From contig DASZAB010000034.1 in assembly GCA_035945675.1 (NCBI GenBank), forward strand, positions 30,255 through 94,254: a stretch of 64,000 nt of DNA. The letters run 5' to 3'. Below, one piece after another: positions 8,479-63,503 of this stretch. Below the pieces are notes generated by a model. It did no database searches. It had not been told where the DNA came from and saw only the letters and a program-made list of their open reading frames with translations. The number at the start of each line of letters is the position of its first letter. The first letter of the stretch is position 1. The stretch comes from Verrucomicrobiia bacterium (GTDB lineage: Bacteria > Verrucomicrobiota > Verrucomicrobiia > Limisphaerales > UBA11358). The translations under genes and the position numbers were made by a program.

Positions 8479-8524
8479 AACGCCCGATTCAAACGGCCAT
8501 GCGGCGGCGATGCCATTTGGAAAT

Positions 8525-8603
8525 TTCGGTGGGCGGGTGTCCTCGCGAGCCGGCTCGTCAGGAGCCACGCCCCCCCAAAAATGTACTGTTACCGCCGACG
8601 CGG
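8525..8603 (+). repeat. Family A palindromic element, copy A1 (intergenic)
   Basis: GGTGGGCGGGTGTCCTCGCGAGCCGGCTCGTCAGGAGCCACGCCCCC plus shared flank AAAATGTAC..TACC. Homologous to the copies at 22144, 55646, 58070 and 61988. Confidence 0.8.
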
Positions 8604-21182: not shown

Positions 21183-21247
21183 CAGGAGCCGAGGTGACGA
21201 GGCTCTGATCTTCATAATTATTAGAGCCTCCTCACGTCGGCTCCTAC
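21183..21247. repeat. Family B-like double-arm hairpin element (copy B4), 8 nt after the hldD stop
   Basis: AGGAGCCGAGGTGACGAGGCTC ... GAGCCTCCTCACGTCGGCTCCT. The arms are near-complementary. Confidence 0.7.
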
Positions 21248-21312
21248 CGGATCCGATGAACTTCACAATAACGTGACTTGCCTTGACAGCGATCCACGTC
21301 AATCCTTGTTGC

Positions 21313-24036
21313 GTGAAAGGCAAATCGTTCATCCACCTTGGAATTATTGTGCTGGCCGCGCTCGGCTTTCATTGTTTTGGCGGTGATTTCGACCAGACCA
21401 CCGAAATCGTCGGTCGTAACCCCAGCGGCTTTGAAACGCCGGTCAATCAACTCGTCACGCCCGCCGGAACGCCCGTCGAACTTCCCGGCCTGCGGCCGAA
21501 TGCACTCGCACTGAGTCCGGACGGCGAACGGCTCGTGACCGCCGGCCTGACGCAACGACTGATCGTCATCAATCCGGCAACCGGAACAATCCTGCAGCGC
21601 GTGCGGTTGCCCGCCGACGACAAAATTCCGCAGGCCGGATCCGTTTCCAGCGGCATTCTCCAACCGAACGAGAAGGCCAAGCTCAGTTTCACCGGCCTCG
21701 TCTTTTCGCCTGATGGCTCACGGATATACCTGGCCAACGTCAACGGCGACATCAAGGTTTTCAGCGTTGACGCGGACCATAAAGTCACGCCGTTGTTCTC
21801 CCTTCCGCTGCCGCCGGCCAACGCGCCGTTGCGCCAGGCCGAAATTCCGGCCGGGATCGCCGTTTCTTCAGACGGCAGGGAGCTTTACGTTGCCGGCAAC
21901 CTTTCTAATCACCTCCTTGAACTCGACGCCGTGACCGGGAAAGTTCTGCGGACTTGGGACACAGGTGTTGCGCCTTTCGATGTCGTCCTCTGCAAAAATA
22001 AAATTTATGTGAGCAACTGGGGTGGGCGGCGGCCGGGCCCGGACAGCCTGACCGGTCCGGCCGGCAACGGCATGAGGGTGCGTGTGGACGCGCGTTCCAT
22101 TGCCAGCGAAGGCTCGGTCTCGGTGATTGATTTGACAGAAGCTGGTGGGGCGAGCGTCCTCGCGAGCCATGGCAACGAGGGCTCGTCGGTAGCCTCGCCC
22201 CGCCCAATCCAGGAACTCCGGACCGGTTTGCATGCCTGCGCCCTGGCGTTAGCGCCCAATGGCCGTTGGCTGGTCGTCGCCAACGCGGGCAGCGACACGC
22301 TGAGCGTGATTGACACGCGGACGGACAAAATCTTCGAGACGATCTGTGCGCGGCAGAACCCGGCGGATTTATTTGGCGCGCAACCCAACGCGCTGGCCTT
22401 CGATAAAAAAGGCAAAACCCTGTTCGTTTGCAACGGCACCCAAAATGCCGTCGCCGTTTTCCGCTTCCAACCCGGCAAATCCAAATTGCTGGGCCTGATA
22501 CCCGTCGGCTGGTTCCCCGGTTCCATTGCGTATGATGCGAAGCGGAAGGAAATTTACGTGGCGAACATTAAAAACCTCAGTCCGGGGATTCGAAGTCACA
22601 CCGGCGAAACGGAGTTCAATTCCAAGGAATATTATGGTTCTCTGTCGCTCGTGCCAGTGCCGTCGAAAAGGGAATTGGCCAGGTTCACCCGGATTGCGCT
22701 GGCGGATTTGCGTTATCCGCTGCTCGCGCAGGCTGCGTTGCCGGCGCGACCCGATCAACCGTCGCGGCCGGTGCCGGAGCGGGCTGGCGAGCCGAGCGTT
22801 TTTCATCACGTCATCTACATCATCAAGGAAAACCGCACTTATGATCAGGTTCTGGGCGATGTCAAGGAAGGCAACGGCGACGCGAATTTGTGCACGTTCG
22901 GCGAGGCCGTCACTCCCAACCAACACAAGCTCGTACGCGATTTCGTGCTGCTGGACAACACGTACTGTTGCAGCATCCTCAGCGCGGACGGCCATCAATG
23001 GGCGGACACAGGCATCGCGATGGATTACGTGGAGCGCGGGTTTGCCGGCTGGCCGCGCAGCTATCCGGCGGGCGGTTTTGGCGAGGAAGGCCGGGACGCG
23101 CTGGCCTATTCACCGGCGGGTTTCATCTGGAACGACGCGCTCGCGCACGGCAAAACGGTTTGTGATTTCGGGGAATTCACCACCGCTCACAAACAATGGA
23201 AGGATTCCCGCCGCAAAGGTGAACCGGATTTTCTCGATTGTTACCACGATTTCCTGGCCGACTCGAATGCGATTGCCTATGCCTGCGAGCCGGACATCGA
23301 GGCGCTGCAACCTTATCTCATGACGAACACGATTGGCTGGGATTTGGACGTGCCGGACATCTGGCGCGCCGCGCAATTCGGCAAAGACCTGAAACAATTT
23401 GAAGCGGCAGACAATCTGCCAAATCTGGTCATCCTCTGGTTGCCGAACGACCACACCAGCGGCACCGCGTTCGGTTCGCCCACGCCCGCGGCGCAGGTGG
23501 CGGACAACGACCTGGCGGTCGGGCAGGTGGTCGAGGCTGTCAGCCACAGCAAGTATTGGAAGGACACGTGCATTTTTGCGGTGGAAGACGATCCGCAGAA
23601 CGGCTGGGACCACGTGAGCGGCTACCGCACCACCGCCTACGTCGCCAGCGCCTATACCCGTCGCGGCGCCGTGGTCAGCACCCAATACAATCAGACCAGT
23701 TTGCTGCGCACGATGGAACTCATGCTCGGGTTGCCGCCGATGAACCAGATGGATGCGACGGCCACGCCGATGTTCGATTGTTTCACCAACACGGCGGACT
23801 TCACACCGTTTACCGCCGTGGCCAACCAGACGCCGCTCGACCAAATGAATCCACCGCCGAAGAAAATTTCCGACGCGCGGCTGCGCAAGGACGCCTACGT
23901 ATCCGCGCGCTTGCCGCTCAAGAAGGAAGATCAATGCCCGGAAGACGTGTTCAATCGCATCTTATGGGATGCGACCAAAGGTCCGCAGACGCCGTATCCG
24001 GTCTGGGCGGTCAAAGCGCTGGATGACGATGATTGA
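21313..24036 (+). CDS. Secreted YncE-like beta-propeller fused to a phosphoesterase (phospholipase C / AcpA family) domain
   Basis: GTG 21313 gives the signal peptide KGKSFIHLGIIVLAALGF. Propeller repeats (LSPDG, FSPDGSRIYLAN, SSDGRELYVAG). Phosphoesterase motifs VIYIIKENRTYDQVLGD, LPNDHTSG, VEDDPQNGWDHV. Confidence 0.85.
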   Translation: MKGKSFIHLGIIVLAALGFHCFGGDFDQTTEIVGRNPSGFETPVNQLVTPAGTPVELPGLRPNALALSPDGERLVTAGLTQRLIVINPATGTILQRVRLPADDKIPQAGSVSSGILQPNEKAKLSFTGLVFSPDGSRIYLANVNGDIKVFSVDADHKVTPLFSLPLPPANAPLRQAEIPAGIAVSSDGRELYVAGNLSNHLLELDAVTGKVLRTWDTGVAPFDVVLCKNKIYVSNWGGRRPGPDSLTGPAGNGMRVRVDARSIASEGSVSVIDLTEAGGASVLASHGNEGSSVASPRPIQELRTGLHACALALAPNGRWLVVANAGSDTLSVIDTRTDKIFETICARQNPADLFGAQPNALAFDKKGKTLFVCNGTQNAVAVFRFQPGKSKLLGLIPVGWFPGSIAYDAKRKEIYVANIKNLSPGIRSHTGETEFNSKEYYGSLSLVPVPSKRELARFTRIALADLRYPLLAQAALPARPDQPSRPVPERAGEPSVFHHVIYIIKENRTYDQVLGDVKEGNGDANLCTFGEAVTPNQHKLVRDFVLLDNTYCCSILSADGHQWADTGIAMDYVERGFAGWPRSYPAGGFGEEGRDALAYSPAGFIWNDALAHGKTVCDFGEFTTAHKQWKDSRRKGEPDFLDCYHDFLADSNAIAYACEPDIEALQPYLMTNTIGWDLDVPDIWRAAQFGKDLKQFEAADNLPNLVILWLPNDHTSGTAFGSPTPAAQVADNDLAVGQVVEAVSHSKYWKDTCIFAVEDDPQNGWDHVSGYRTTAYVASAYTRRGAVVSTQYNQTSLLRTMELMLGLPPMNQMDATATPMFDCFTNTADFTPFTAVANQTPLDQMNPPPKKISDARLRKDAYVSARLPLKKEDQCPEDVFNRILWDATKGPQTPYPVWAVKALDDDD
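22144..22205 (+). repeat. Family A palindromic element, copy A2, in frame inside the phosphoesterase CDS
   Basis: GGTGGGGCGAGCGTCCTCGCGAGCC..GGCTCGTCGGTAGCCTCGCCCCGCCC, translated as GGASVLASHGNEGSSVASPRP. Confidence 0.85.
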
Positions 24037-33607: not shown

Positions 33608-34303
33608 ATGAGACTGATCCTGCTCCAGAACATTTCGCGCCGTTACCAAATGGGCGCGGAAACCGTCCACGCCCTGCGCGACGTGTCCTTGGAAATCCAG
33701 CGCGGCGAATACGTCGCCATCATGGGGCCGTCCGGCTCCGGCAAATCCACGTTGATGAATTTGATCGGTTGTCTCGATACGCCCAGCGCCGGGCATTATG
33801 GGCTGAATGGCGTCAGCATCAGCGAAATGGATGACAACCAGCTCGCGGAGATTCGCAACCGCGAGATCGGCTTCGTCTTCCAGACCTTCAACCTGCTGGC
33901 CCGTTCGAACGCGCTGCACAATGTCGAGTTGCCGTTGATTTACGCCGGGATATCCGCCGAGGAACGCCGCCACCTGGCCCTGGCAGCGCTGGCGCAGGTC
34001 GGCCTGACCGACCGCATTCATCACAAACCCAACGAGCTTTCCGGCGGCCAGCGCCAGCGGGTGGCGGTCGCCCGCGCCCTGGTCAACAAACCCTCGTTGC
34101 TGCTGGCCGACGAACCAACGGGCAATCTGGACTCCAAGACCGGCGCGGAAATCATGGCGTTGTTTGACGACCTCTCCCGGAAGGGCAATACCATCATCGT
34201 CGTCACACACGAAGAGGACATCGCCAAACACGCCCGCCGTATCATCCGGCTCCGTGACGGTTTGATTGCCAGCGACGAGAAGAAGGTCCCGGGGCCGGGA
34301 TGA
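33608..34303 (+). CDS. ABC transporter ATP-binding protein (MacB/LolD type)
   Basis: Walker [11 protein letters not shown]-loop, signature LSGGQRQR, Walker [13 protein letters not shown]. Confidence 0.95.
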
Positions 34304-34403
34304 ATGGATGGCTGGATAAATAGATTTATGGAAAACAACCAGCATAGCCGAACCACCAGAGGATATGACTCCCTGATCCATTTATCCATCAATCCACCCA
34401 TCC
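34298..34403. repeat. GGAT/ATCC-rich inverted-repeat element G1 in an operon spacer
   Basis: Left arm GGATGAATGGATGGCTGGATAAAT and right arm GATCCATTTATCCATCAATCCACCCATCC are imperfectly complementary. Confidence 0.7.
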
Positions 34404-34404
34404 A

Positions 34405-35634
34405 GTGAAGTTTCTTGCCGAAATCAACGAAAGTCTGGGCATTTCCTGGAATGCGCTGCGCGCAAACAAGATGCGCTCGGTGCTGGCCACGCTGGGGATT
34501 GTCATCGGCATCCTCACCGTCACGCTCATGGGCGCAGCCATTAATGGCTTGAATCAGGCGTTCATCAGAAACGTTTCCGCCCTCGGTGCGGACGTGTTCT
34601 ACGTCTCGCGTTTTAAGTGGTTCAATAACACCTATGAAGACTGGGTGAGCATGCGCAAGCGTCCCAAAATCACTCTTGCGGAATCGGACGCTCTGGCCCG
34701 ACAACTGACGTTGGCCGACGCCGTCGCGCCGACTGCGGACAATGAAGATTCGGTTAAATATAAAAATCGCAGTGCCAGCAGCGTGGACGTCGTGGGCACC
34801 ACCGAGGCCTATCTGCAAACCAGCGGAGTGGACGTGGCCCAGGGCCGGTTCCTGACCGCGGCGGATGCCCGGGGCGGCCAGCCAACCTGTGTCATTGGCA
34901 ATGACGTCGCCACCAATCTCTTTCGCGCGGATCCGCCGCTGGGTGAACGCATCAAAATTGAAGACCAATCTTTTCTCGTGGTCGGTGTGCTGGAGAAACA
35001 GGGGACCATGTTCGGCTACAGCCTCGACAACCGGGTGATCATTCCTTTGAGACAGTATATCGGTTTGATCGAAAGAAATCCCGGCATTGATATTCAGGTG
35101 AAAGTCGGGGATTTGGCCCATCTGGATGAAGCCCGGGAGGAGTTGCGCCAGACGATGCGCCGCATCCGCCATCTCCGGCCAAACCAGCCCGATAATTTTT
35201 CCATCAACCAGCAGGATGAGATCGTCAAATGGTTCCATGACCAGACTGCCACCATCGCCGTCATCGGTTTGTTCGTCACGAGCCTGGCGCTGTTCGTCGG
35301 CGGCATCGGCATCATGAACATCATGTTTGTTTCCGTGGTCGAGCGGACGCGGGAGATCGGTGTGCGCAAGGCGATTGGCGCCAAACGCCGCAATATTTTG
35401 CTGCAATTTCTGATCGAGTCCGCCAGCGTTTGCCTGATGGGCGGCCTGATCGGGCTGGGCATCGCCTGGGTGATATCGCTCGCCGTTTCGAAGTGGCTGT
35501 TTCCGGCGACCCTGTCTGTGACCATTGTTACCCTGTCCCTGCTCGTGTCACTGTTGACGGGGGTGATTTCCGGTTTCCTGCCGGCCTGGCGCGCCGCGCG
35601 CATGGATCCGGTGGAGGCATTAAGAAGCGAATAA
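34405..35634 (+). CDS. ABC transporter permease (MacB/FtsX family) 1
   Basis: GTG start. MacB_PCD-like periplasmic domain between TM1 and TM2. C-terminal FtsX motif GIMNIMFVSVVERTREIGVRKAIGA. Confidence 0.9.
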   Translation: MKFLAEINESLGISWNALRANKMRSVLATLGIVIGILTVTLMGAAINGLNQAFIRNVSALGADVFYVSRFKWFNNTYEDWVSMRKRPKITLAESDALARQLTLADAVAPTADNEDSVKYKNRSASSVDVVGTTEAYLQTSGVDVAQGRFLTAADARGGQPTCVIGNDVATNLFRADPPLGERIKIEDQSFLVVGVLEKQGTMFGYSLDNRVIIPLRQYIGLIERNPGIDIQVKVGDLAHLDEAREELRQTMRRIRHLRPNQPDNFSINQQDEIVKWFHDQTATIAVIGLFVTSLALFVGGIGIMNIMFVSVVERTREIGVRKAIGAKRRNILLQFLIESASVCLMGGLIGLGIAWVISLAVSKWLFPATLSVTIVTLSLLVSLLTGVISGFLPAWRAARMDPVEALRSE

Positions 35635-35640
35635 TGAAAA

Positions 35641-35740
35641 ACTGGATGAATGGATTTTTGGATCAATGGATTATTGAGGCCGTGAACGGCCGCGTATTGA
35701 ATTCATTGATCCATCAATCCAATAATCCAATAATCCAATC
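35641..35740. repeat. GGAT/ATCC-rich inverted-repeat element G2 in an operon spacer
   Basis: CTGGATGAATGGATTTTTGGATCAATGGATTATTGAG ... ATTGATCCATCCAATCCAATAATCC-type arms around a GGCCG-tgaa-CGGCC loop. Related to G1. Confidence 0.7.
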
Positions 35741-35746
35741 TTTGTC

Positions 35747-46759: not shown

Positions 46760-47764
46760 ATGAATCCAAATCCGCATGTGGCCGTGGTGGGCGCAACCGG
46801 CGCCGTCGGCATCGAAATGATCAAGACGCTGGAAAAGAGAAACTTCCCGGCGGGCCAACTGACGTTGCTCGCCTCGGCGCGCTCCGTCGGCAAAAAGCTC
46901 AAATTTTGCGGCCAGGACGTTACGGTCAAGGAATTAACGAAGGACTCCTTCGCCGGCATTGATATTGCGCTGTTCAGCGCGGGCGGCAGCATTTCGAAGG
47001 AATACGCGCCCATTGCGGCGAAGGCCGGCTGCGTGGTCGTGGACAATTCCAGCGCCTTTCGTCAGGACGACAGCGTGCCGCTGGTGATTCCCGAAATCAA
47101 CGCCGCGGACGTGAATTGGCACAAAGGCATCATCGCCAATCCGAACTGCACCACCGCCATTACCCTGATGGCGCTGTACCCGTTGCATGCCGCGTTTGGC
47201 TGCAAGCGCATTTTTGCGTCCAGTTACCAGGCGGTTTCCGGCGCCGGTGCCAAGGCAATGGAAGAATTGAAACGGCAGGTTGGCGAAATCGTTTCCGGCA
47301 AGCCGGCAACGAAAGAGGCTTTTCCACATCAAATCGCTTTCAACGTGTTGCCGCAAGTGGATGTCTTTCTGCCGACCGGCTACACCAGGGAAGAAATGAA
47401 GATGGAAAACGAAGGCCGCAAAATCATGCATCATCCGAATTTCCGGGCGAGCGTCACCTGCGTGCGCGTGCCGGTGTATCGCTCGCATTCCATCGCCGTG
47501 AGCGCAGAATTTGAGAAGCCGGTCAGCGTGGACGCTGCACGTGCCGTTTTGAAAAAGGCGCCTGGCCTCGACCTGGTGGACGAGCCGGAGAACAAAAAAT
47601 ATCCGATGCCATTGTTCACCTCGGAGAAGTACAACTGTGAAGTCGGCCGCGTCCGAAAAGATTGCGCGTTGGAAAATGGCTTGTGTTTCTGGGTAAGCGG
47701 CGACCAGTTGCTCAAGGGCGCGGCGCTCAACGCGGTTCAGATTGCGGAAGAGTTGCTCAAATAA
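46760..47764 (+). CDS. asd: Aspartate-semialdehyde dehydrogenase
   Basis: VAVVGATGAVG, IIANPNCTT (active-site Cys), SYQAVSGAG, VRVPVYRSHS. ATG 46760 chosen within ORF 46619..47764. Confidence 0.95.
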   Translation: MNPNPHVAVVGATGAVGIEMIKTLEKRNFPAGQLTLLASARSVGKKLKFCGQDVTVKELTKDSFAGIDIALFSAGGSISKEYAPIAAKAGCVVVDNSSAFRQDDSVPLVIPEINAADVNWHKGIIANPNCTTAITLMALYPLHAAFGCKRIFASSYQAVSGAGAKAMEELKRQVGEIVSGKPATKEAFPHQIAFNVLPQVDVFLPTGYTREEMKMENEGRKIMHHPNFRASVTCVRVPVYRSHSIAVSAEFEKPVSVDAARAVLKKAPGLDLVDEPENKKYPMPLFTSEKYNCEVGRVRKDCALENGLCFWVSGDQLLKGAALNAVQIAEELLK

Positions 47765-47769
47765 TTTCC

Positions 47770-47841
47770 GTAGCAGCCGACATGAGTCGGCTCAAACTTT
47801 GGGGATGGGGGAGTAAGGAGCGGACTCACGTCCGCTGCTAC
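47770..47841. repeat. Family B composite double-hairpin element, copy B1 (6 nt after the asd stop)
   Basis: GTAGCAGCCGACATGAGTCGGCTC..GAGCGGACTCACGTCCGCTGCTAC. Each arm is a hairpin, and the outer GTAGCAGC/GCTGCTAC closes the element. Confidence 0.85.
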
Positions 47842-48216
47842 AAAGAGTTACTGCGTGGCGAGCCGATAGAAACCACTGCGATTAAACCAGGGACTAAAGA
47901 TTTACAACAGCGTGTCCTGCCGCCGGGGGGAACATTGGCGCTGATGGCGCCGTAATTCCAAGCTTCATATAACAAATTTGCACCTTTCATTGAAAGCCGC
48001 TCGGGTTTTTGCCGGACTTGCCTGCTTTCACTGATGTCCCAAAGCTGACTAAAGCTGTCCCAAGATGGCGTAGATGTAATTCTTTTATTCAGCGAAAATC
48101 ACCGGCGTGCAAACTCAATTTGCACAGAACCAGACCACCCCTGTGAAAGAATGAGTTGTGGCTCGGCCGTCGAGCCGGAAGTCGCTTTCCACAGTGGTCA
48201 AAATAAGAAAGAAAAC

Positions 48217-48879
48217 ATGAAAAAACTACAAATAGCAGTACTCACAATCAGTTTGACCGTCGCCATGAGTGCCAGCGCGGCTATCTATACGTATTCGGGC
48301 AGTGATTTTAATAACGGTGCCCTGATAGGTTCATATAATGGCACTTATGTATCCGCACCTTCCGGCCACATGAACCTGGCCTACATCGTCCCAACCGATG
48401 ACGCGGTGGTTGGCGCCAAAGGCCCGTTTGGGACGTTGAATGATCTCAGCATGAGCTTTGACTATTCCAATCTGGTTGGCGGGAATGGCAATCAGCCGTA
48501 TGCGGCCTTCGGCCTGTCCGTGGATGGCACGTGGGGTGGGTCGGCGCAAGAATACCTGGTCATCGCCATGAGCGGTAACCAGCTCGATGGAACGACTCCG
48601 ATTCACGTCTTTGACGCTACTCACAATACCGACACTGGCGTGACCTGGGGTTCAACGATGGCCAGCATTCTCGGCGCGACTGATACCTACAGCGGCGGCC
48701 TCACTTTCGGAAACATGCAGGTTATGAGGGCCTATGCGTATATTGGAGATTGGCCCGGCGTGGGAAATGTCAGCGTGGACATCAACTCCATCACCGTCAC
48801 CTCAGTGCCTGAACCCACGACAATGGCGTTATTCGCGGGCGGAGCGCTGCTGTTGATTTCCCTGCGACGCAAAGGTTGA
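48217..48879 (+). CDS. PEP-CTERM sorting domain protein
   Basis: Signal peptide MKKLQIAVLTISLTVAMSASA. C-terminal VPEPTTMALFAGGALLLISLRRKG. Confidence 0.8.
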   Translation: MKKLQIAVLTISLTVAMSASAAIYTYSGSDFNNGALIGSYNGTYVSAPSGHMNLAYIVPTDDAVVGAKGPFGTLNDLSMSFDYSNLVGGNGNQPYAAFGLSVDGTWGGSAQEYLVIAMSGNQLDGTTPIHVFDATHNTDTGVTWGSTMASILGATDTYSGGLTFGNMQVMRAYAYIGDWPGVGNVSVDINSITVTSVPEPTTMALFAGGALLLISLRRKG

Positions 48880-49034
48880 GCCACTTTCGGATTCTCCGTT
48901 ACGAAACAAGCCGGTCTCATTGGCCGGCTTGATTTTTGTCGAGCGTTGATGGGTTCCTTTATGGTCCTGCGGAAACGCTGCGGAATGGGTTCGGGAAAAC
49001 CGAAATATTTCACACCAACACGGGGCGACCGTAT

Positions 49035-50075
49035 TCAAGCCAATTTCATGACAGGCCGGGCGCTTACTTTCGGGTGATTCAACGTGGTCACCCCGCATGG
49101 CAAGGGAGTGGGAGAACCGCTGGGAATACACTCATTGAGGGTCCGCAAGCTCTTTGCACCACCGACTCTCGGGTTTGGGGCCTCTCCTCGTGACAGCGGG
49201 CACAAGCCGTTGCTTCGCAGTGAACAATTCACGCTGTCAAGGTTCACATCCGCCTGCCGGGTTTGAACTTCTATCACCAGCTTTCGCCACTGACCCGGAC
49301 TGGCGCCGAACCGTTTCTTAAAGTGTATGTTAAAAAAGCTCAGATGACTGAATCCGCATTCCTCGGCCACGCGGATAATTTTGGTGTCCGGGTTTTTTAA
49401 TAAAGACACGGCTTTGAGCAGGCGCATTTCCATTTTCAAGGCCGCCGCGGAAACGCCAAAGCGTTGATGAAACAAACGATTCAGGTGGCGCCGACTGCAA
49501 CCGAATTTGTTCGCCAGTCCGCCGACCGGCAAGCTCAGGAGTTCGGCGGTTGATAACTTTTCGATGATCCCGGCCAGGGGTTTCTCATCCCGGACAGACC
49601 TGTTTGGTTGCGGCGGTACCGTTTCAAATTCCACCGCGAGCGGGACGGCCGCGACCCGTAACAGTTGACTGCGATGATCGAGGTCGAACCGGGAAGGGAC
49701 GTCTCTTAAAAGCCGGCGGCATTTCTGGGCCGGCGCACTGGACGCCGGATACAGTCGCGCGCTTCGGAAAACGTCGCTGACGTTTTGCAATCGATAGATC
49801 TCATTGTTGGCAAGCAGCGGGAGAAAATGTTCCAAACGCAGTGAGAAGTGCTCAAACACGATCTTGCCTTGGTCAGGGACATGAAGTCTGCCTCCGGACA
49901 CGGCGCTTGCGACCAGAACATCGCCAGAGGAAACCGGGTACCTGACCAGGCCGGAGATGTAGTCTGCAGCTCCGGCCCGGACAAAGATAAAAACCAGTCC
50001 CGCTCCCTTGCAATCCCAAACTTCAGGCGGTTCAAGACTAACCGATCGCAGTTTCAAGTGGCCCTGGGTAATCAT
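49035..50075 (-). CDS. AraC family transcriptional regulator
   Basis: C-terminal double HTH: RHLNRLFHQRFGVSAAALKMEMRLLKA..ECGFSHLSFFNIHFKKRFGASPGQWR. Confidence 0.85.
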   Translation of the reverse strand: MITQGHLKLRSVSLEPPEVWDCKGAGLVFIFVRAGAADYISGLVRYPVSSGDVLVASAVSGGRLHVPDQGKIVFEHFSLRLEHFLPLLANNEIYRLQNVSDVFRSARLYPASSAPAQKCRRLLRDVPSRFDLDHRSQLLRVAAVPLAVEFETVPPQPNRSVRDEKPLAGIIEKLSTAELLSLPVGGLANKFGCSRRHLNRLFHQRFGVSAAALKMEMRLLKAVSLLKNPDTKIIRVAEECGFSHLSFFNIHFKKRFGASPGQWRKLVIEVQTRQADVNLDSVNCSLRSNGLCPLSRGEAPNPRVGGAKSLRTLNECIPSGSPTPLPCGVTTLNHPKVSARPVMKLA

Positions 50076-50279
50076 CTGACGCCTCCCTCACATCCCATCC
50101 GGGTGCGAAACAGCCGCGACGGGCGGTGGAGTTCTGAGATGTTCCATAGATTGCCAGTTGAAGTCTTTGCATTTGACCATCTTTTAAAAATATTGTCAAG
50201 AGAACATGTTACTTATGATAAGCATAATGCGACGTGTTCACGCAGTGCCAATCGCGGAAGAATTGATTAAATAACCCTC

Positions 50280-50350
50280 GTAGCAGCCGATGTGAATCGG
50301 CTCAATCTTTGGGGAAGGGGCATAATGAGCGGACTCACGTCCGCTGCTAC
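50280..50350. repeat. Family B composite double-hairpin element, copy B2
   Basis: GTAGCAGCCGATGTGAATCGGCTC..GAGCGGACTCACGTCCGCTGCTAC. Compensatory C:G to T:A change in arm 1 relative to B1. Confidence 0.85.
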
Positions 50351-50384
50351 TGGGTGGCGAGCCGGTAGAAACTGCAGCCGTTGG

Positions 50385-51506
50385 TCAGCGCAACGTCACT
50401 TCCTCCTGCAGGTTCGTGAGATTGAGAGCCGGCGTGTTCGTCACGTCCGTCCAGTTCGTGGTGGTCAAATCCGGGTTCTGCTGCAAGACAAAATTGGTCG
50501 AAGGAATAATCCAGGAGAGAAGGAGGTTGCCGTTGGTTGGCACGATATTCACTTGCGGTGACGGGGTAGTTTGTGAGGTGTAAATTCCTCCGAGCGTACC
50601 CGCTACTAATTTATGGCCGTCCGCTGAAGACGCCATATTTGACAACGATACATTAGTTGTGCTGGCCGCCCACGTTAACCCCGAATTAGTCGAAACAAAA
50701 GTGCCGCCTGCCAAAGCAAACAATTTGCTTCCATTCGCCGAAATGGCAACGGAAACCCAGTTCGTTATCGGGGCATTGGCGGGGACCCAATTTGCCCCCG
50801 AATTGGTTGACACATAAATTGGACCGCGTGGACCATTGAAAGCCCCCGCCACTGCCGCCCACAAACTTCCGTCAGCCGATGAAGCAATCGATGACCAATA
50901 CGCGATTGGCACATTATTTGTAGTCCATGTATTTCCGGAATCGTTCGAAGTGTAAATGGCACCATTTTGGACCGCTGCCGCCAATTTGCTGCCATCGGCT
51001 GACGACGCGACGCATGTCCAATACCCGGCAGGCGCAGAAGTGGACACCACCCAGGAGCTTCCTGAATTCGTGGAAATAATAATGCTGCCGGGATGCATCG
51101 CCGCGACCAACTTTTTCCCATCCGCTGATAAGGCAACATAGGTTCCCAACTCCCTGTATTCCCAGGAGACGCCCGAATTTGTGGAAATCCACACTTGATC
51201 AGCTGCCGTACCACCGCCGCCCGCCGCCAGTATGCTTCCATCTGCCGAAGAGGCGACGGAACGCCAGCCGTAGCCGGTATTTGTAGAGAGAGTTGTATCC
51301 CACGTTAGACCGAAATTTGTCGAGGTATAAACTCCCGTGGACGATGACGCAGCGACCAACTTGCCTCCATCCGCCGAGCAAGCAACGGAAGCCCAGCTTT
51401 CGTAGGGTGCCATGGTCTGGGTCCACGTTTGTGAAAAGCCTGAATACTGAATAAACGGTGATAAACAAACCGCAAAAGTCATTCCACTTCGCGCAAGGAA
51501 TTTCAT
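50385..51506 (-). CDS. Secreted BNR/Asp-box repeat beta-propeller protein (C-terminus apparently truncated by a frameshift)
   Basis: Signal-like N-terminus from ATG 51506. Six or more Asp-boxes (STNFGLTW, STNSGVSW, STNSGSSW, SNDSGNTW, STNSGANW, STNSGLTW). Confidence 0.8.
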   Translation of the reverse strand: MKFLARSGMTFAVCLSPFIQYSGFSQTWTQTMAPYESWASVACSADGGKLVAASSSTGVYTSTNFGLTWDTTLSTNTGYGWRSVASSADGSILAAGGGGTAADQVWISTNSGVSWEYRELGTYVALSADGKKLVAAMHPGSIIISTNSGSSWVVSTSAPAGYWTCVASSADGSKLAAAVQNGAIYTSNDSGNTWTTNNVPIAYWSSIASSADGSLWAAVAGAFNGPRGPIYVSTNSGANWVPANAPITNWVSVAISANGSKLFALAGGTFVSTNSGLTWAASTTNVSLSNMASSADGHKLVAGTLGGIYTSQTTPSPQVNIVPTNGNLLLSWIIPSTNFVLQQNPDLTTTNWTDVTNTPALNLTNLQEEVTLR

Positions 51507-51555
51507 CAGCCTTCCTTTATTTATCCAATTAGCACTGCTTTTGTCAAACCTAGAC

Positions 51556-51975
51556 TCACGGCTTGGCCGTTTCCTTGGTGTAAGCGACGAGGTTTTTGAT
51601 TTTGGCCTTGGCGGCGGCGTCCCGCACTTGCACCACTTTTCCCCAGGGCGCCTTTTCATCGGCGTTGATGGCGAGGATGAGCTTGGGATTTTTTTCTGCG
51701 CGCGAAATCAGATCACTCTGCAATTGCTCGAACGTCACCGGCAATTTTTCGAGGTAATAAACGCCGTTGGAATCAATGCTCACCACGAATGGCGGGTTCT
51801 CGTTCGCACCCTCCTTTTTAGCTTGAGACGATTCGGGCAACTGCAGTTTCAAGGCCGCCTGCTGCTTGAACGTCGTCGTCACCAACAGGAAAATCAGCAG
51901 CACGATGAGCACGTCAATCAGCGCCACGATGATGACGGCGGGCGTGGTGCGGCGTTTGCGAACGAGGAAGCGCAT
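51556..51975 (-). CDS. exbD: Biopolymer transport protein ExbD/TolR
   Basis: TM helix PAVIIVALIDVLIVLLIFLL with the conserved Asp. Periplasmic domain with ILAINADEKAPWGKVVQVRDA. Confidence 0.9.
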   Translation of the reverse strand: MRFLVRKRRTTPAVIIVALIDVLIVLLIFLLVTTTFKQQAALKLQLPESSQAKKEGANENPPFVVSIDSNGVYYLEKLPVTFEQLQSDLISRAEKNPKLILAINADEKAPWGKVVQVRDAAAKAKIKNLVAYTKETAKP

Positions 51976-54100: not shown

Positions 54101-55756
54101 TTATTTTTCCAGGTTGTATCTGACGAAATCCAGGTCGGCGGTCCCCCCATTGGGCCCGTAGCAAAACAATGCCAGCCGCGCACCCTTCCATTTGCCGAAC
54201 TTCAATTCCACCGCCAGTCCGGTGTCGGTGTAGTGTTCGCCATCGGTACTGTAGAACAGTCGCGCCTCCTTCCCATGGTACTTGCCCCGGAACCATACGT
54301 CAGCGCCCTTTAACACCGGGCCCGCGCCATTTTCCAAGGCGATTCGCCGCACTCCGTCGCTCTGCGTTACCCCAACCCAGTCAAACCTGTCGCCGCTCAT
54401 AAAGGCAAATCCGGTGCATTGGTTTTCCGCCATGGCGCTGACATCGAACTTTGTGTCAATGAGGCCGTCCTGTCCCAACAATTTTTCGGTCAGGGTGTTG
54501 TGGGCGGTGGACAGGCCGGAGGCGGGCAAGGCGTTGAGTCGCAGCCAGCCGGGCCGGGCCGTCAGTGACCAGGAGTCATTCATTGGGTTGTGGTTCCATT
54601 GCCAGATCGGAGACAGCACCGGATCGTCGAAATCGTCGCTTCTTTGTGGATGATGAATGGGAGAAGGCCGTCCGACATAAGGTTTTTTCCATCGGTCCAC
54701 CGACTGGCCGTGATCGCCGAACACCGGCCAGTCATCTGTGCCCCAGGTGACCGGCATCAGGTAGGTGATACGTCCAAGGAAACCGCTGGATTTGAAGCAC
54801 AGAAACCACCATTGACCATCAGCCAGTTCCACGAGCGCGCCTTGATGCGGACTGCCATCAGGCAACACCACCCGCCGTTCGTACGGGCCATAAATATTGG
54901 TGGAACGGAGCATCGTCTGGCCGCCCGTGCCGACGCCGCCTTCCGGAAGGGATATGTAATACCAGCCGTTCCGTTTGAAGAGTTTTGGGCCTTCCGCCGT
55001 CGGGCCGTGATAAATTTCAACACCGTCATCCAGCAATCGCACCCCGTCCGGGCTCATGCGGTGCAGAATCAATGGGCCGGCACCCTTGAGACTATGAATG
55101 AGGTACGCCTGCCCGTCGTCATCCCAGAACGGGCAGGGATCTTCCCAGCGTTCCACGGCCCGAACGGTGAACGTTCGCGACCACGGCCCGGCTGGATTTT
55201 GGGCGTGCCACATGAATAAACCTTCGGACGGAGTACAGACGAAGACGTAATAGGTACCGTTGTGATAACGCAAGGTCGGCGCCCACGTCCCCTCACCATA
55301 GCCGGTCAGGTCATCGTACTTTGGCGACATGCTCAACCGGTGGAATACCTGGCCGATGACTTCCCAATTGACGAGATCGCGCGAATGCAACACCTGCATG
55401 CCGACGAAGTGAAAATCCGACGCGACCAGATAAAAATCGTTCCGGACGCGAATGACGTCAGGATCGGAATAATCCGCGGGCAGGACCGGATTTCGATAGG
55501 TGCCGTCGCCCTGGTCACCCCAGCTCAGTGGCGATTCGGCGGGAATGGCCGGCGGGGCCGGTTGACTGGCGGCGGTAAAGCTCATCATCATGATGCCGGT
55601 AAAAAGCGAAATGGCGCCTTTTCGGGTGAAAGTATATTCCGCAACTTTCGGTGGGGCGAGCGTCCTCGCAAGCCGGCTCGTCAGTAGCCTCGCCCCATCA
55701 AAATGTACCACTACCCGTTTCCATAGGGCGCGGATGGTTTGGGACCGGTTTACCAT
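54101..55756 (-). CDS. Glycoside hydrolase family 43 protein with C-terminal beta-sandwich domain
   Basis: YRNPVLPADYSDPDVIRVRNDFYLVAS, WAPTLRYHNGTYY, EGPKLFKRNGWYY (GH43 blades). The start is uncertain (55756 or the MMM at 55591) because a family A repeat lies in the 5' part. Confidence 0.85.
   Translation of the reverse strand: MVNRSQTIRALWKRVVVHFDGARLLTSRLARTLAPPKVAEYTFTRKGAISLFTGIMMMSFTAASQPAPPAIPAESPLSWGDQGDGTYRNPVLPADYSDPDVIRVRNDFYLVASDFHFVGMQVLHSRDLVNWEVIGQVFHRLSMSPKYDDLTGYGEGTWAPTLRYHNGTYYVFVCTPSEGLFMWHAQNPAGPWSRTFTVRAVERWEDPCPFWDDDGQAYLIHSLKGAGPLILHRMSPDGVRLLDDGVEIYHGPTAEGPKLFKRNGWYYISLPEGGVGTGGQTMLRSTNIYGPYERRVVLPDGSPHQGALVELADGQWWFLCFKSSGFLGRITYLMPVTWGTDDWPVFGDHGQSVDRWKKPYVGRPSPIHHPQRSDDFDDPVLSPIWQWNHNPMNDSWSLTARPGWLRLNALPASGLSTAHNTLTEKLLGQDGLIDTKFDVSAMAENQCTGFAFMSGDRFDWVGVTQSDGVRRIALENGAGPVLKGADVWFRGKYHGKEARLFYSTDGEHYTDTGLAVELKFGKWKGARLALFCYGPNGGTADLDFVRYNLEK
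55646..55722 (+). repeat. Family A palindromic element, copy A3 (inside the 5' part of the GH43 ORF, inverted relative to the gene)
   Basis: TTTCGGTGGGGCGAGCGTCCTCGCAAGCCGGCTCGTCAGTAGCCTCGCCCCATCAAAATGTACCACTACC. Near-identical to A1, including the flanks. Confidence 0.85.
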
Positions 55757-58036: not shown

Positions 58037-58069
58037 CCAGGCCAGGCTGCGGTGCGTTTTCCGTTTTCA

Positions 58070-58137
58070 GGTGGGGCGAGCGTCCCCGCGAGCCGGACGT
58101 GGCGCGCCGAAGCTTTGCGAAGGCGGCTCCTCAGTAG
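58070..58137 (+). repeat. Family A element, copy A4 (intergenic, variant centre)
   Basis: GGTGGGGCGAGCGTCCCCGCGAGCCGG..GGCTCCTCAGTAG. Confidence 0.75.
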
Positions 58138-58184: not shown

Positions 58185-58288
58185 GTAGCGCGGGCGTCCT
58201 CGCCTGCGGGTTCACCCCGGCGTCCCGCCGGGTGTTCCTTTCGACAGCGAGACACCGTCAGAACCCGCAGTCGAGACGACTGCGCTAC
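58185..58288. repeat. Family E long hairpin element
   Basis: GTAGCGC..CTGCGGGTTC (58185-) pairs with GAACCCGCAG..GCGCTAC (-58288). There is a perfect 10-bp inner stem and a 7-bp outer stem. Confidence 0.75.
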
Positions 58289-60133: not shown

Positions 60134-60625
60134 TCAATTGGCCGAGCGCAGGATGACGTTCGTGGTGAACAACAGGATCATGATGACGTTGATCGAGAAC
60201 TTGCCCACGATGCCCACGAACAAACCGAGCGTTGCGCCCAGGCCGGCCTTGGCGGCCGGTTTCCATTCCCGGCCGCCAGTCAATTCCAGCAAGGTTGCGC
60301 CAATAAAAGGGCCGATAATGATTCCCGGCAAGCCGAAGAAAAGGCCGATGATGCCGCCGAGCACCGCACCCGCCGCCCCGCGCCAGGTCGCACCGAATTT
60401 GTTGGCTCCCAACCAACCCGCCACAAAGTCAAACACCAGCGCGATGACTGTGAGCAAGACCAGGATGATCAACACGGATTGATTGACGCTGGCCGGGCCA
60501 AAACAAAGCCTGTGACCAACTGCTGCTGCCAGCACGAGCAGGGTGCCGGGGAATCCCGGCACGAGTCCGCCAATCAGCCCCGCCAGCATCACCAGCAGGG
60601 TCAGGCTCAGACCAATGGTTTCCAT
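60134..60625 (-). CDS. DUF456 family membrane protein
   Basis: ATG 60625. LAGLIGGLVPGFPGTLLV, DFVAGWLGANKFGAT, GLPGIIIGPFIGA are typical DUF456 segments. Confidence 0.8.
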   Translation of the reverse strand: METIGLSLTLLVMLAGLIGGLVPGFPGTLLVLAAAVGHRLCFGPASVNQSVLIILVLLTVIALVFDFVAGWLGANKFGATWRGAAGAVLGGIIGLFFGLPGIIIGPFIGATLLELTGGREWKPAAKAGLGATLGLFVGIVGKFSINVIMILLFTTNVILRSAN

Positions 60626-60645: not shown

Positions 60646-60703
60646 GTAGCAGCGAACGTAAGTTCGCTCCAATTGAAATGAGCCGACTCACGTCGGCTGC
60701 TAC
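60646..60703. repeat. Family B element, copy B3 (short spacer)
   Basis: GTAGCAGCGAACGTAAGTTCGCTC..GAGCCGACTCACGTCGGCTGCTAC. Lies between the divergent DUF456 and lipoprotein genes. Confidence 0.8.
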
Positions 60704-61157: not shown

Positions 61158-63296
61158 TTACTTCCTCGTCCGCTTCAATTTTTTATAACTCACCGGCTTC
61201 GCTTCCGGTTTTTCGCCGTTGACCATGCGTTTCAATTCCTTGATCTGGTCGCGGAGCAGGGCGGCTTTTTCAAATTCCAGCTTTTCCGCCGCTGCCAGCA
61301 TTTCGGTTTCGAGTTCGCTGATGGTTTCCGTCAGGTCCACGTCCATTGCGGCATCTTTCAGGACGGACGCGCCGGCTTCGCGTTTCGATTCGTAAACGGC
61401 CAGGCTTTCTTCAACCGCGCGGCTGACGCTGCGGGGTGTGATGTTGTGTTCCGCGTTGTAAGCGATTTGTTTTTGGCGGCGATATTCGGTCACGGCCAGA
61501 AATCTGTTGATGCTGTTCGTCATCACGTCGGCATAGAGAATCACCTCACCGTGCAAATGCCGCGCGGCGCGGCCCGCGGTCTGGATCAAACTCGTTTCAC
61601 TGCGCAGAAAACCTTCCTTGTCCGCGTCGAGGATCGCCACCAATGAAACTTCCGGCAAATCCAGACCTTCCCGCAACAGGTTGATGCCGACGAGCACATC
61701 GAATTCGCCTTTGCGGAGCGAACGCAAAATCTCCACGCGCTCAATGGCGTCAATCTCACTGTGGAGATACTGGACGTTGACGCCGATGCCGCGCAGGTAA
61801 TCGGTCAGTTCCTCGGCAGTGCGTTTGGTGAGTGTCGTTACAAGGATGCGCTCCTTCGCCTCGGCACGTTTGCGGCATTCCTCGATCAGATCGTCGATCT
61901 GGCCTTTGAGCGGTTTGAGCGTGACCTTGGGGTCGATCAGACCGGTGGGGCGCACCACGAGTTCGACGACGCCCGGCATTTGTTGGTGGGGCGAGGCTAC
62001 TGACGAGCCGGCTGTTTCGATTCGGCTCGCGGGGACGCTCGCCCCACCGTTCGATTCGGCTCGCGGGGACGCTCGCCCCGCGGTGGCACTTTCCCGCGAC
62101 CATTCCAGTTCGCGTTTGGCCGGAGTGGCGCTGACGTAAATCGTCTGGCCTTGCATTCCTTGAAATTCCTCGAATTTCAGCGGGCGATTATCCAGCGCAC
62201 TCGGCAGGCGGAAACCGTACTCAACCAAAACGGTCTTCCGCGAGCGGTCCCCTTCGAACATCGCGCCGATTTGCGGGACGGTCGCGTGAGATTCATCAAT
62301 CACCAGCAGGTAATCGTTCGGAAAAAAGTCAATGACGGTTGCCGGGCGCGAGCCGGGCGGGCGTCCGGCGATGTGGCGCGAATAATTTTCGATGCCGGAA
62401 CAGACGCCCATCTCCTCCATCATCTCCAGGTCGAATTCCGTGCGCTGCTTGATGCGCTGGGCTTCGAGCAGTTTGCCATTCTTTTCAAACCAGACGATGC
62501 GCTCGCGCAATTCCTCGCGGATGGCGAGAGCGGCGCGCTTCATCTTGTCGGCGGTGGTGACAAACTGCTTTCCCGGGAAAATGGTCACGGCGTCGAGCGT
62601 TTCGGTTTTGTTTCCCGTCAACGGATCGAAACGGGTGAGCCGCTCGATTTGCTCGCCGAAAAATTCGACGCGCAGGCCGTCTTCGCGCCCCGCTGGCCGG
62701 ACTTCCACGGTGTCACCGCGCACGCGGAAATGGCCGCGTTCGAACGCGATGTCATTCCGGTCGTACTGCAAATCCACCAGGCGCGCGAGGAGTTGCTCGC
62801 GCGAGATTTCCAGGCCGACGCGGATGGGAATGACCATCGCTTCGTAATCTTCCTTGCTGCCGATGCCGTAAATGCACGACACGCTGGCAACGACGACGAC
62901 ATCCCGGCGCGAGAACAGCGAACTCATGGTTGAGAGCCGCAGTCGCTCGATTTCTTCGTTCCGGCTGGAATCCTTCTCGATGAATGTGTCCGTGCGCGGG
63001 ATGTAGGCTTCCGGCTGGTAATAATCGAAGTAACTGACGAAGTATTCGACGGCGTTGCGGGGAAAAAATCCCTTGAACTCGGCGTAAAGCTGCGCGGCCA
63101 GTGTTTTGTTGTGGGAAATGACCAGCGTGGGTTTGTCCACGTTTTTGATGACGTTGGCGATGGCGAAGGTTTTCCCGGAGCCGGTGACGCCGAGGAGCGT
63201 CTGGTGTTTTGCGCCCGACAAAATGCCATCGGTCAGCTTCGCAATCGCTTGCGGCTGGTCACCGGCGGGCTGGAAGGGCGCGACGAGTTCGAACAT
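61158..63296 (-). CDS. uvrB: Excinuclease ABC subunit B
   Basis: GVTGSGKTF, DESH, YVSATP, VRPTGL, LREGLDLPEV, GRAARH, C-terminal UVR domain EKAALLRDQIKELK. ATG 63296. Confidence 0.97.
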   Translation of the reverse strand: MFELVAPFQPAGDQPQAIAKLTDGILSGAKHQTLLGVTGSGKTFAIANVIKNVDKPTLVISHNKTLAAQLYAEFKGFFPRNAVEYFVSYFDYYQPEAYIPRTDTFIEKDSSRNEEIERLRLSTMSSLFSRRDVVVVASVSCIYGIGSKEDYEAMVIPIRVGLEISREQLLARLVDLQYDRNDIAFERGHFRVRGDTVEVRPAGREDGLRVEFFGEQIERLTRFDPLTGNKTETLDAVTIFPGKQFVTTADKMKRAALAIREELRERIVWFEKNGKLLEAQRIKQRTEFDLEMMEEMGVCSGIENYSRHIAGRPPGSRPATVIDFFPNDYLLVIDESHATVPQIGAMFEGDRSRKTVLVEYGFRLPSALDNRPLKFEEFQGMQGQTIYVSATPAKRELEWSRESATAGRASPRAESNGGASVPASRIETAGSSVASPHQQMPGVVELVVRPTGLIDPKVTLKPLKGQIDDLIEECRKRAEAKERILVTTLTKRTAEELTDYLRGIGVNVQYLHSEIDAIERVEILRSLRKGEFDVLVGINLLREGLDLPEVSLVAILDADKEGFLRSETSLIQTAGRAARHLHGEVILYADVMTNSINRFLAVTEYRRQKQIAYNAEHNITPRSVSRAVEESLAVYESKREAGASVLKDAAMDVDLTETISELETEMLAAAEKLEFEKAALLRDQIKELKRMVNGEKPEAKPVSYKKLKRTRK
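61988..62083 (-). repeat. Family A element, copy A5, with a 34-nt tandem re-duplication of one arm, in frame inside uvrB
   Basis: GGGGCGAGGCTACTGACGAGCCGGC..TCGATTCGGCTCGCGGGGACGCTCGCCCC occurs twice. Translated as ATAGRASPRAESNGGASVPASRIETAGSSVASPH. Confidence 0.85.
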
Positions 63297-63503
63297 GCGA
63301 AATGAAGGTAGAAGCGGAACCAACGAGAGTCAATGAAGCGCCAGCCCGGCTCTAAAGTCTGGCAGGGCGCGTCACTCCGTGCGCGCCGTGGGCCCCGTAC
63401 GCCGGCAGGCAGGGGACCGCCCGTCCTGCCCAATTTGAAATCAGGCCTCCGATCCACCTCGGAGCTTCTCTTTATTGGAAAATCTGATTAGACTCCTTGT
63501 CCA

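Follow-up and report, generated by a model that had tools for sequence, protein, structure and literature searches.

The window, by which we mean the whole 64-kb stretch of DNA analysed, carries four short intergenic elements that we refer to as family B: B1 (47770-47841), B2 (50280-50350), B3 (60646-60703) and B4 (21183-21247). All four had been reported in a preliminary description, and each was found at those positions. B1, B2 and B3 are each an inverted pair of one 23-nt unit with the GTAG heads facing outward, whereas B4 belongs to a sister class, so that the earlier treatment of the four elements as one family holds for the first three, which share a unit, and not for B4. The features of the window are as follows; the units are named REP units in anticipation of the reading argued below.

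20168-21175: NAD-dependent epimerase (hldD-like) gene (Pfam), stop 7 nt before B4
21183..21247: B4, a class-1 REP pair, stem with tandem G·A mismatches
21225-21247 (-): B4 right unit, GTAGGAGCCGACGTGAGGAGGCT; the head of the left unit is degenerate (GTtcAGGAGCCGAGGTGACGAGGCT)
46619-47764: asd, stop 5 nt before B1
47770..47792 (+): B1 left REP unit, GTAGCAGCCGACATGAGTCGGCT, class 2, stem AGCCGAC/GTCGGCT
47793..47818: B1 linker, 26 nt, G-rich, common to B2 and absent from the orthologous element of the related genome L002
47819..47841 (-): B1 right REP unit, GTAGCAGCGGACGTGAGTCCGCT, inverted
47849..47902 (-): fossil gene tail ending in IFSPWFNRSGFYRLATQ, 17 codons after an in-frame stop, with its own TAA stop
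48151-48879: PEP-CTERM protein gene (Pfam), between B1 and B2
49035-50075 (-): AraC-family regulator gene (Pfam), between B1 and B2
50228..50274 (+): fossil asd 3' end, ending in MRRVHAVPIAEELIK and a stop, the left part of a ~150-bp duplicate of 47718-47880
50280..50302 (+): B2 left REP unit, GTAGCAGCCGATGTGAATCGGCT, doubly changed from the C:G of B1 and L002 to T:A
50328..50350 (-): B2 right REP unit, GTAGCAGCGGACGTGAGTCCGCT; its head TAG (50349-50347) is the stop codon of a frame ending in SFYRLATQ
50347..51659 (-): sortilin/BNR-like beta-propeller gene, whose corrected frame ends in ALTNGCSFYRLATQ and a stop
60625 (-): ATG of a DUF456 gene, on one side of B3
60646..60668 (+): B3 left REP unit, GTAGCAGCGAACGTAAGTTCGCT
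60681..60703 (-): B3 right REP unit, GTAGCAGCCGACGTGAGTCGGCT, after a 12-nt linker, between divergent gene starts
60764 (+): ATG of a small lipoprotein-like ORF, on the other side of B3

The units are 23-24 nt long and consist of GTAG, a C, a perfect 7-bp stem around a GT(G/A/C)A loop, and a final C; the class-2 layout can be written GTAG-C-AGCNNNN-loop4-NNNNGCT. The window holds six class-2 units, namely GTAGCAGCCGACATGAGTCGGCT, GTAGCAGCGGACGTGAGTCCGCT (twice), GTAGCAGCCGATGTGAATCGGCT, GTAGCAGCGAACGTAAGTTCGCT and GTAGCAGCCGACGTGAGTCGGCT. GTAG, the 7-bp stem and the 4-nt loop were present in all six and in 211 units from genome loci. The linkers measure 26 nt in B1, 25 nt in B2 and 12 nt in B3, and B1 is a heterodimer because the stem of its right unit differs from that of its left unit. 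A search of the window for GTAGCAGC-N12-GCT, allowing at most one mismatch, returned 8 matches against 0.51 expected, a number reached by none of 100 shuffles. One of the 8, at 60507-60529, is a chance match without a hairpin.

With respect to the neighbouring genes, B1, B2 and B4 had been placed close behind stop codons and B3 in a divergent promoter region, and both placements stand: B1 follows the asd stop by 5 nt and B4 the epimerase stop by 7 nt, the head of B2 itself supplies a TAG, and B3 lies between the starts of the DUF456 gene and the lipoprotein-like ORF.

A duplicated segment beside asd

The similarity between B1 and B2 spans about 47718-47880 and 50228-50378, both flanks included, at 79% identity. 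The shared flank of about 35 nt described earlier is real but incomplete, being part of a ~150-bp duplication that includes a fossil asd tail left of B2, which reads AVPIAEELIK before its stop where the real gene reads AVQIAEELLK. This fossil was missing from the preliminary description. B1 and B2 are the two copies of one ~150-bp segmental duplication comprising asd tail, REP pair and FYRL tail, not separate insertions, and the duplicates flank a 2.4-kb insert with the PEP-CTERM protein gene and the AraC regulator gene. The idea that a gene end had been duplicated together with a terminator module thus survives in its first part, a gene end plus element, but the element, having no T-run, is not terminator-like. 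The pair marks a local rearrangement, not a transposition, and is useful for synteny at the asd locus.

The fossil beside B1, ending in NRSGFYRLATQ with a stop 17 codons in, was recovered as first described, and comparison of the B1 locus with related genomes, the check proposed at that time, identified its counterpart. It is orthologous to a tail ending in GSGFYRLETP beside an asd-linked REP pair in the related MAG L002, which is 82% identical over 4.6 kb. L002 has the order asd, REP pair, GSGFYRLETP tail, with junctions of the B1 type (TTTCC before the head, CAAA after), indicating that B1 is the orthologous copy; it differs from B1 in a 15-nt linker of other sequence and in a 789-aa membrane-protein gene beyond. 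L002 lacks the linker that B1 and B2 share, which suggests that the duplication postdates the split from L002. The double change of B2, from CGAC/GTCG to CGAT/ATCG, arose once the duplication had taken place, or else through conversion by a different copy. In L024, a distant relative with 74% identity, the element after asd is absent; this identity and the different downstream sequence rule L024 out as a clean empty site.

On the minus strand to the right of B2, a 424-aa BNR-like ORF (50385-51659) stops at 50385 as NLQEEVTLR. A frame open for 88 codons runs on to VALTNGCSFYRLATQ and a stop whose TAG is that of the B2 REP head, and this SFYRLATQ frame joins the 424-aa ORF only through an apparent 1-nt frameshift near 50390, 13 codons before the end. 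After a one-nucleotide correction, the BNR-like C-terminus aligns unbroken with that of an intact homologue in locus L087, which ends in KSVIISPQAGNLFFRLAHP and a stop, so that the FYRL end is the true end of the BNR-like gene; the apparent frameshift may be genuine or may come from the assembly. In related loci, 12 long ORFs end in a (R)FYR(L/V)xxx tail, which is thus a genuine C-terminal motif in the lineage. We also considered whether the flank GGCGAGCCGGTAGAAAC is part of the element. Its sole occurrences next to a REP are those at B1, at B2 and at the orthologous site in L002, and so it represents locus-specific coding sequence for the FYRL tail.

Distribution, pairing and folding of the units

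A census pattern, GTAGCAGCSGACRTGAGTCSGCT, was scanned over a species-representative genome collection. It matched more than 118 stretches, nearly all from Verrucomicrobiota MAGs (Limisphaerales, Pedosphaera and subdivision 3), and among the 80 matches listed about 60 different genomes carry the exact 23-mer. The repeat family inhabits soil and freshwater Verrucomicrobia. The window holds 4 pairs per 64 kb, all intergenic, and several loci per MAG occur among the genome-scan matches listed.

In the census, 170 of 222 units form 85 head-out (+/-) pairs with linkers of 12-42 nt, and the remaining 52 are single. Neighbouring units were otherwise arranged as -/+ twice and +/+ once; the arrangement of inverted REPs across a short variable linker, as in BIME and REPIN doublets, therefore accounts for 85 pairs against 3 others. 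Sixty of the 85 are CGAC+GGAC heterodimers and 6 are homodimers. The stems of two partners nearly always differ from each other, while each is complementary within itself. The linker is conserved neither in length nor in sequence. Immediately before GTAG, positions -2 and -1 are about 80% pyrimidine, compared with a background of 50%. Some unit copies are read through inside ORFs. In a rough test, the TAG of a REP head ended a long ORF in 12 of the 211 units from genome loci, a count not distinguishable from that of any in-frame TAG, and we rejected REP heads as systematic suppliers of stop codons.

As isolated strands, the whole elements have an MFE fold that is one long imperfect hairpin (z = -4.9 to -8.9), and the form with two hairpins is about 1 to 10 kcal/mol less stable; for B1 the values are -38 and -28 kcal/mol. 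The double-hairpin layout proposed at the outset is correct in so far as GTAGCAGC...GCTGCTAC contains two local hairpins, but it is not the MFE fold of the whole element.

Covariation distinguishes between these forms. Where the genome-scan pattern permitted all four S..S combinations, which leaves the test unbiased, the units showed 80 C..G and 64 G..C, that is, 144 pairing combinations, against 3 non-pairing ones. We then assembled 48 distinct units, three from the window and the others from loci ascertained by protein (below). Of their stem cells 97.6% are paired, a percentage inflated by pre-filtering for at least 5 of 7 pairs, which does not inflate the excess of double changes over shuffles. 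Double changes occur in five of the seven stem pairs (G:C/U:A, C:G/G:C, G:C/A:U, A:U/G:C and C:G/U:A), with 75 doubly changed cells compared with 28.4 ± 3.3 in shuffles. The covariation score was 0.574, against 0.225 ± 0.02 in shuffles and at most 0.10 with slid partners, and none of 500 shuffles reached it. These values partly reflect the descent of mobile-repeat copies from few master copies, and double changes in palindromes can also come from template switching instead of selection. The compensatory change from CCGAC/GTCGG in B1 to CCGAT/ATCGG in B2, on which the preliminary description had based a structural constraint, is thus real, the constraint extends to the family, and the covariation it had proposed to seek across many copies is strong.

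In the long hairpin of an inverted pair, position i of one unit pairs with position i of the other. Because the partner stems differ, this hairpin has mismatches exactly at the covarying positions, and the covariation therefore speaks for the pair of small hairpins and not for the long one. A three-way structure with an outer stem is without covariation support.

RAYT genes and the origin of the repeats

A tblastn search with a generic RAYT-like sequence, which served as a lead only, identified two genes in the fetched loci, at 5437-6132 of L100 and 5787-6452 of L106. Both are bracketed by GTAG-headed inverted units; those of L100 are of the B4 type, and a unit adjoining the gene is identical to the 23-mer of B4. 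Both proteins carry HUH and Tyr motifs and match NCBIfam NF047646 (REP-associated tyrosine transposase) at E values of 1e-11 to 1e-13, with scores of 44-50 bits for the verrucomicrobial proteins against a curated cut-off of 80. A Pfam search returned no family, including Y1_Tnp, at E <= 0.01. The best PDB match was 4ER8, the E. coli TnpAREP (E 8.6e-6, positions 30-162). The protein family comprises 1480 homologues at E <= 1e-5, several of them named 'REP element-mobilizing transposase RayT' by NCBI or JGI. H91, H93, Y150, N154 and P155 are invariant in the alignment, giving an HUH motif (LMPDHxH) and a Y-x3-NP motif, as in a RAYT/TnpAREP with a Y1 HUH domain and a single catalytic Tyr in a Y-x3-(N/Q)P context. 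The verrucomicrobial proteins share a conserved C-terminal extension of about 45 aa (GAxVPGYPxLHPL..FW..WK...PDAG.I.RPP) and constitute a divergent RAYT subfamily.

We then turned to 80 metagenome loci fetched by protein alone, 71 of them distinct. Nearly all 80 have GTAG-headed head-out pairs at both ends of the gene, with units between +3 and +30 nt and between about -30 and -200 nt of nearly every RAYT gene. At least two units lie within 400 nt of the gene in 66 of the 71 distinct loci, and unit density is 5.46/kb up to 400 nt from the gene versus 0.17/kb beyond, a 32-fold enrichment. The exact GGAC+CGAC pair of B1 and B2 stands beside RAYT genes in four loci (L171, L189, L194 and L196). 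The REPtron arrangement, a RAYT gene bracketed by cognate REPs, is therefore present in related genomes. Within the 64-kb window, tblastn with the L100 and L106 proteins found no RAYT gene, nor did tblastn with approximate E. coli YafM and generic RAYT-like queries.

The units fall into two classes. Class 1, the B4 type, has GTAGCAGCCGACGT(A/G)AGGAGGCTC with GTAGCAGCCGAGGTAACGAGGCTC; tandem G·A mismatches break its stem, and positions 12:17 are C:G in some units and G:C in others. Class 2, the type of B1 to B3, has GTAGCAGCGGACGTGAGTCCGCTC with GTAGCAGCCGACGTGAGTCGGCTC or GTAGCATCGAACGTCAGTTCGATC. Average-linkage clustering of the proteins brought 21 of the 22 class-2 loci together, and a separate cluster took in 42 of the 44 class-1 loci; the transposase clade tracks the REP class. 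In the protein-ascertained loci, the class-2 pairs near RAYT genes combine different stems in 41 of 44 cases and the same stem in 3, whereas among 58 class-1 pairs near RAYT genes the 12:17 pair is shared by both partners in 37 and differs in 21. Tentatively, and with somewhat less than even confidence, we propose that two sister Limisphaerales RAYT clades co-diverged with the two REP classes, the perfect-stem class being a near-obligatory heterodimer and its 23-mer being kept across about 60 species. If class-2 heterodimers do mark distinct 'left' and 'right' ends or avoid perfect long palindromes, they would offer a natural system for the evolution of TnpAREP specificity and of REP-pair architecture.

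Collectively, these findings point, with a probability that we put at about 0.9, to family B being GTAG-tagged REPs in head-out pairs (BIME/REPIN-like) and the cognate sites of a verrucomicrobial RAYT/TnpAREP (REPtron), an identity that the preliminary description had not recognised. By homology with the TnpAREP of E. coli, Stenotrophomonas and Marinomonas, we infer how they would arise. Each unit would fold into a small hairpin on single-stranded DNA, and the HUH/Tyr enzyme would bind this hairpin together with the GTAG guide, then cleave and rejoin at a nearby pyrimidine dinucleotide; the predicted substrate, bound and cleaved by the RAYT, is single-stranded GTAGCAGCSGACGTGAGTCSGCT. Such cleavage and rejoining could generate and disperse units without target-site duplications, with copies likely to persist mainly just downstream of genes.

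A terminator role had been suggested for B1, B2 and B4, but it seems improbable that the elements are Rho-independent terminators, or bidirectional ones, which selection keeps as RNA hairpins where genes end. These three begin 0-7 nt after stop codons, the hairpins are very stable on both strands, and for 35 of the 211 units from genome loci a long ORF running towards the unit stops within 15 nt of it. However, there is no T-run after any of the eight arms (the tails read AAAGAGTT, TGGGTGGC, GAAATACT and CGGATCCG), and a terminator scan of the window left the elements out of its output while reporting a canonical hairpin with a T-run at 48907-48931, after the PEP-CTERM gene. B3 occupies the gap between two divergent gene starts, transposase genes have the same units on either side, upstream included, and termination leaves the conserved GTAG head and GTNA loop unexplained. 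REPs stabilise upstream mRNA, and transcribed copies of family B probably serve as 3' stem-loops, shielding mRNA or tuning the expression of the preceding gene, a role that is plausible as a secondary effect.

Still less probable is a structured non-coding RNA family, cis-regulatory or a small RNA, in which the covariation would record selection for RNA function independent of a transposase. Strong covariation of the 7-bp stem, the conserved loop and the exact 23-mer in about 60 species-level genomes among the matches listed would suit such a family. Against it, the units can point either way with respect to neighbouring genes and always form symmetric inverted pairs, the linker varies in length and sequence over 12-42 nt, some copies are read through inside ORFs, and neither the 32-fold enrichment around RAYT genes nor the co-variation of REP class with RAYT clade is expected. 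An Rfam scan of the whole window at gathering thresholds returned tRNA-Pro only, so that no known RNA family matches the elements. Finally, the 12-nt terminal inverted repeats, small size and intergenic dispersal would suit a MITE that descends from a classical (DDE) insertion sequence and is bounded by GTAGCAGCCGAC as inverted repeats. This reading can be rejected with near certainty because no target-site duplications flank B1, B2 or B3 and the gene associated with the units encodes an HUH/Y1 enzyme, not a DDE transposase; single units and heterodimers also exist.

We therefore retain the REP/RAYT reading, which explains a conspicuous repeat in a poorly studied phylum and argues against annotating these repeats as terminators or as a novel RNA family. 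For general biology the finding is ordinary. The clean, protein-ascertained data set, with two REP classes and two RAYT clades, could serve specialists in site recognition by domesticated HUH enzymes.

Comparison with known systems

Family B is a well-known repeat type, already surveyed in Verrucomicrobia (Opitutus terrae), and not a new kind of element. A 2013 survey (Di Nocera et al. 2013, PMC3733652) records GTAG repeats within the PVC superphylum, with the verrucomicrobium O. terrae 'highly enriched'; it describes GTAG REPs, O. terrae included, as having GTAG heads, HH dimers, heterodimers, linkers of 20-100 nt, REPtrons and positions downstream of genes. Family B resembles the families described there in its GTAG 5' of a short GC-rich palindrome, its heads-out inverted pairs, its variable linker, the presence of multiple families per genome, and, among the copies covered here, a mostly intergenic location downstream of genes with occasional intragenic copies. 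Likewise, the GTAG REP/RAYT literature reports several families per genome, each with its own REPtron, and occasional in-frame intragenic copies (PMC3733652, PMC2817692, PMC8266576, PMC3479197). Its pairing of partners with different stems recalls P. aeruginosa GTAG-24 and the E. coli Y and Z types, and GTAG HH dimers and heterodimers are equivalent to the BIMEs of Enterobacteria and the REPINs of Pseudomonas.

The association with an enzyme gene also has close parallels. As in the REPtron/TnpAREP systems of E. coli (4ER8) and of S. maltophilia and Marinomonas (group 3) (PMC8266576, PMC2817692), a gene with HUH and Tyr motifs is bracketed by cognate REPs, and perfect-palindrome REPs are likewise found in the group 3 systems of S. 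maltophilia and Marinomonas. GTAG serves for both recognition and guidance, and cleavage falls at CT (PMC8266576); in the systems studied the CT or CA cleavage dinucleotides lie just 5' of GTAG (PMC8266576). Family B shares with REPtron systems a pyrimidine-rich stretch just 5' of GTAG and a REP class that co-varies with the enzyme clade. Its predicted single-strand hairpin recognition by a Y1 HUH enzyme, the guide tetranucleotide 5' of the hairpin and the lack of target duplication are features of IS200/IS605; unlike those elements, its hairpins are scattered through the genome with no transposase gene enclosed, and the gene for the enzyme is single-copy-like, not repeated.

Relative to the TnpAREP systems studied so far, the verrucomicrobial proteins are divergent, have no Pfam match, fall below the NF047646 threshold, carry a C-terminal extension and are known from sequence alone. 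Compared with described GTAG REPs other than GTAG-17 and GTAG-19 of O. terrae, the repeats stand apart by a sequence specific to Limisphaerales/Pedosphaera-type Verrucomicrobia, and family B is characterised by a perfect 7-bp stem, a GTNA tetraloop and one spacer base after GTAG. With its 23-mer in about 60 species-level MAGs among the matches listed, the family is broader than most described REP families. What is specific to family B is therefore its Limisphaerales-type sequence, its breadth across species, and its divergent RAYT subfamily with a C-terminal extension.

The 2.4-kb insert and the adjoining gene with an apparent frameshift

The insert enclosed by the B1 and B2 repeats, and the sortilin/BNR-like gene beyond it, are laid out in the window as follows:

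47842-50279, 2.4-kb insert, flanked by the duplicated junctions
48151-48879, PEP-CTERM secreted protein gene, within the insert
48907-48931, canonical intrinsic terminator, after the PEP-CTERM gene
49035-50075, minus strand, AraC-family regulator gene, within the insert
50385-50395, site of an apparent 1-nt frameshift, 13 codons ahead of the FYRLATQ* end of the sortilin/BNR-like gene

In a related metagenome-assembled genome (MAG; locus L002), a gene encoding a 789-aa membrane protein takes the place of this insert. Following correction of the frame, the tail of the sortilin/BNR-like product aligned contiguously with an intact homologue at locus L087; the frameshift could represent either a genuine pseudogene lesion or an assembly error.

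Coexisting REP systems and unexpected contig labels

Locus L106 harbors two kinds of REP beside a gene for a REP-associated tyrosine transposase (RAYT):

5716-5791 and 6379-6452, third REP type (GTAGCGGCGTCTCGGCAGAGCGCCGC), bracketing the RAYT gene
6983-7052, REP pair of the B-type (the perfect-stem class of B1-B3), inside a 402-aa open frame

The presence of this third type around the RAYT gene, together with a B-type pair ~530 nt from that gene, indicates that several REP/RAYT systems coexist in these genomes. The 402-aa frame resembled, by eye, a GcvT/YgfZ-type folate-binding protein, and the B-type pair within it is read through as ...SQSRLTSAAT..., possibly reflecting an in-frame intragenic REP insertion.

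Among the matches listed, the verrucomicrobial REP was also observed on a few contigs from MAGs that carry names such as Akkermansia muciniphila, Bifidobacterium, Klebsiella and Methylomirabilota (loci L003, L018, L023, L033, L034 and L057). These non-matching MAG labels are probably binning or labelling errors, and the REP could help to flag such contigs.

Family A and other repeats in the window

The second repeat family in the window, family A, consists of units such as GGTGGGGCGAGCGTCCTCGCGAGCC and GGCTCGCGGGGACGCTCGCCCC, and is probably another REP-like family having its own enzyme. Its copies, and AT-rich direct and inverted repeats of the GGATGAATGGAT / ATCCATCAATCC type (families D7, D13 and I2; both sites intergenic, 1.3 kb apart), are located as follows:

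8518-8580, family A
22135-22201, family A, by coordinates within long ORF 21283-24036 (plus strand)
34298-34404 and 35628-35742, AT-rich repeats
55641-55703, family A, by coordinates within long ORF 54101-55756 (minus strand)
58061-58099, family A
58185-58213, family A, the unit at 58185 beginning with GTAG
61976-62083, family A copies in uvrB (ORF 61158-63323, minus strand)

The copies within uvrB, whose product comprises 721 aa, remain in frame and encode a ~38-aa insert (...ELEWSRE[SATAGRASPRAESNGGASVPASRIETAGSSVASPHQQMP]GVVELVVRPTGL...). This insert resembles the intragenic REPs described in the repair genes uvrA of O. terrae and uvrB of R. conorii (PMC3733652).
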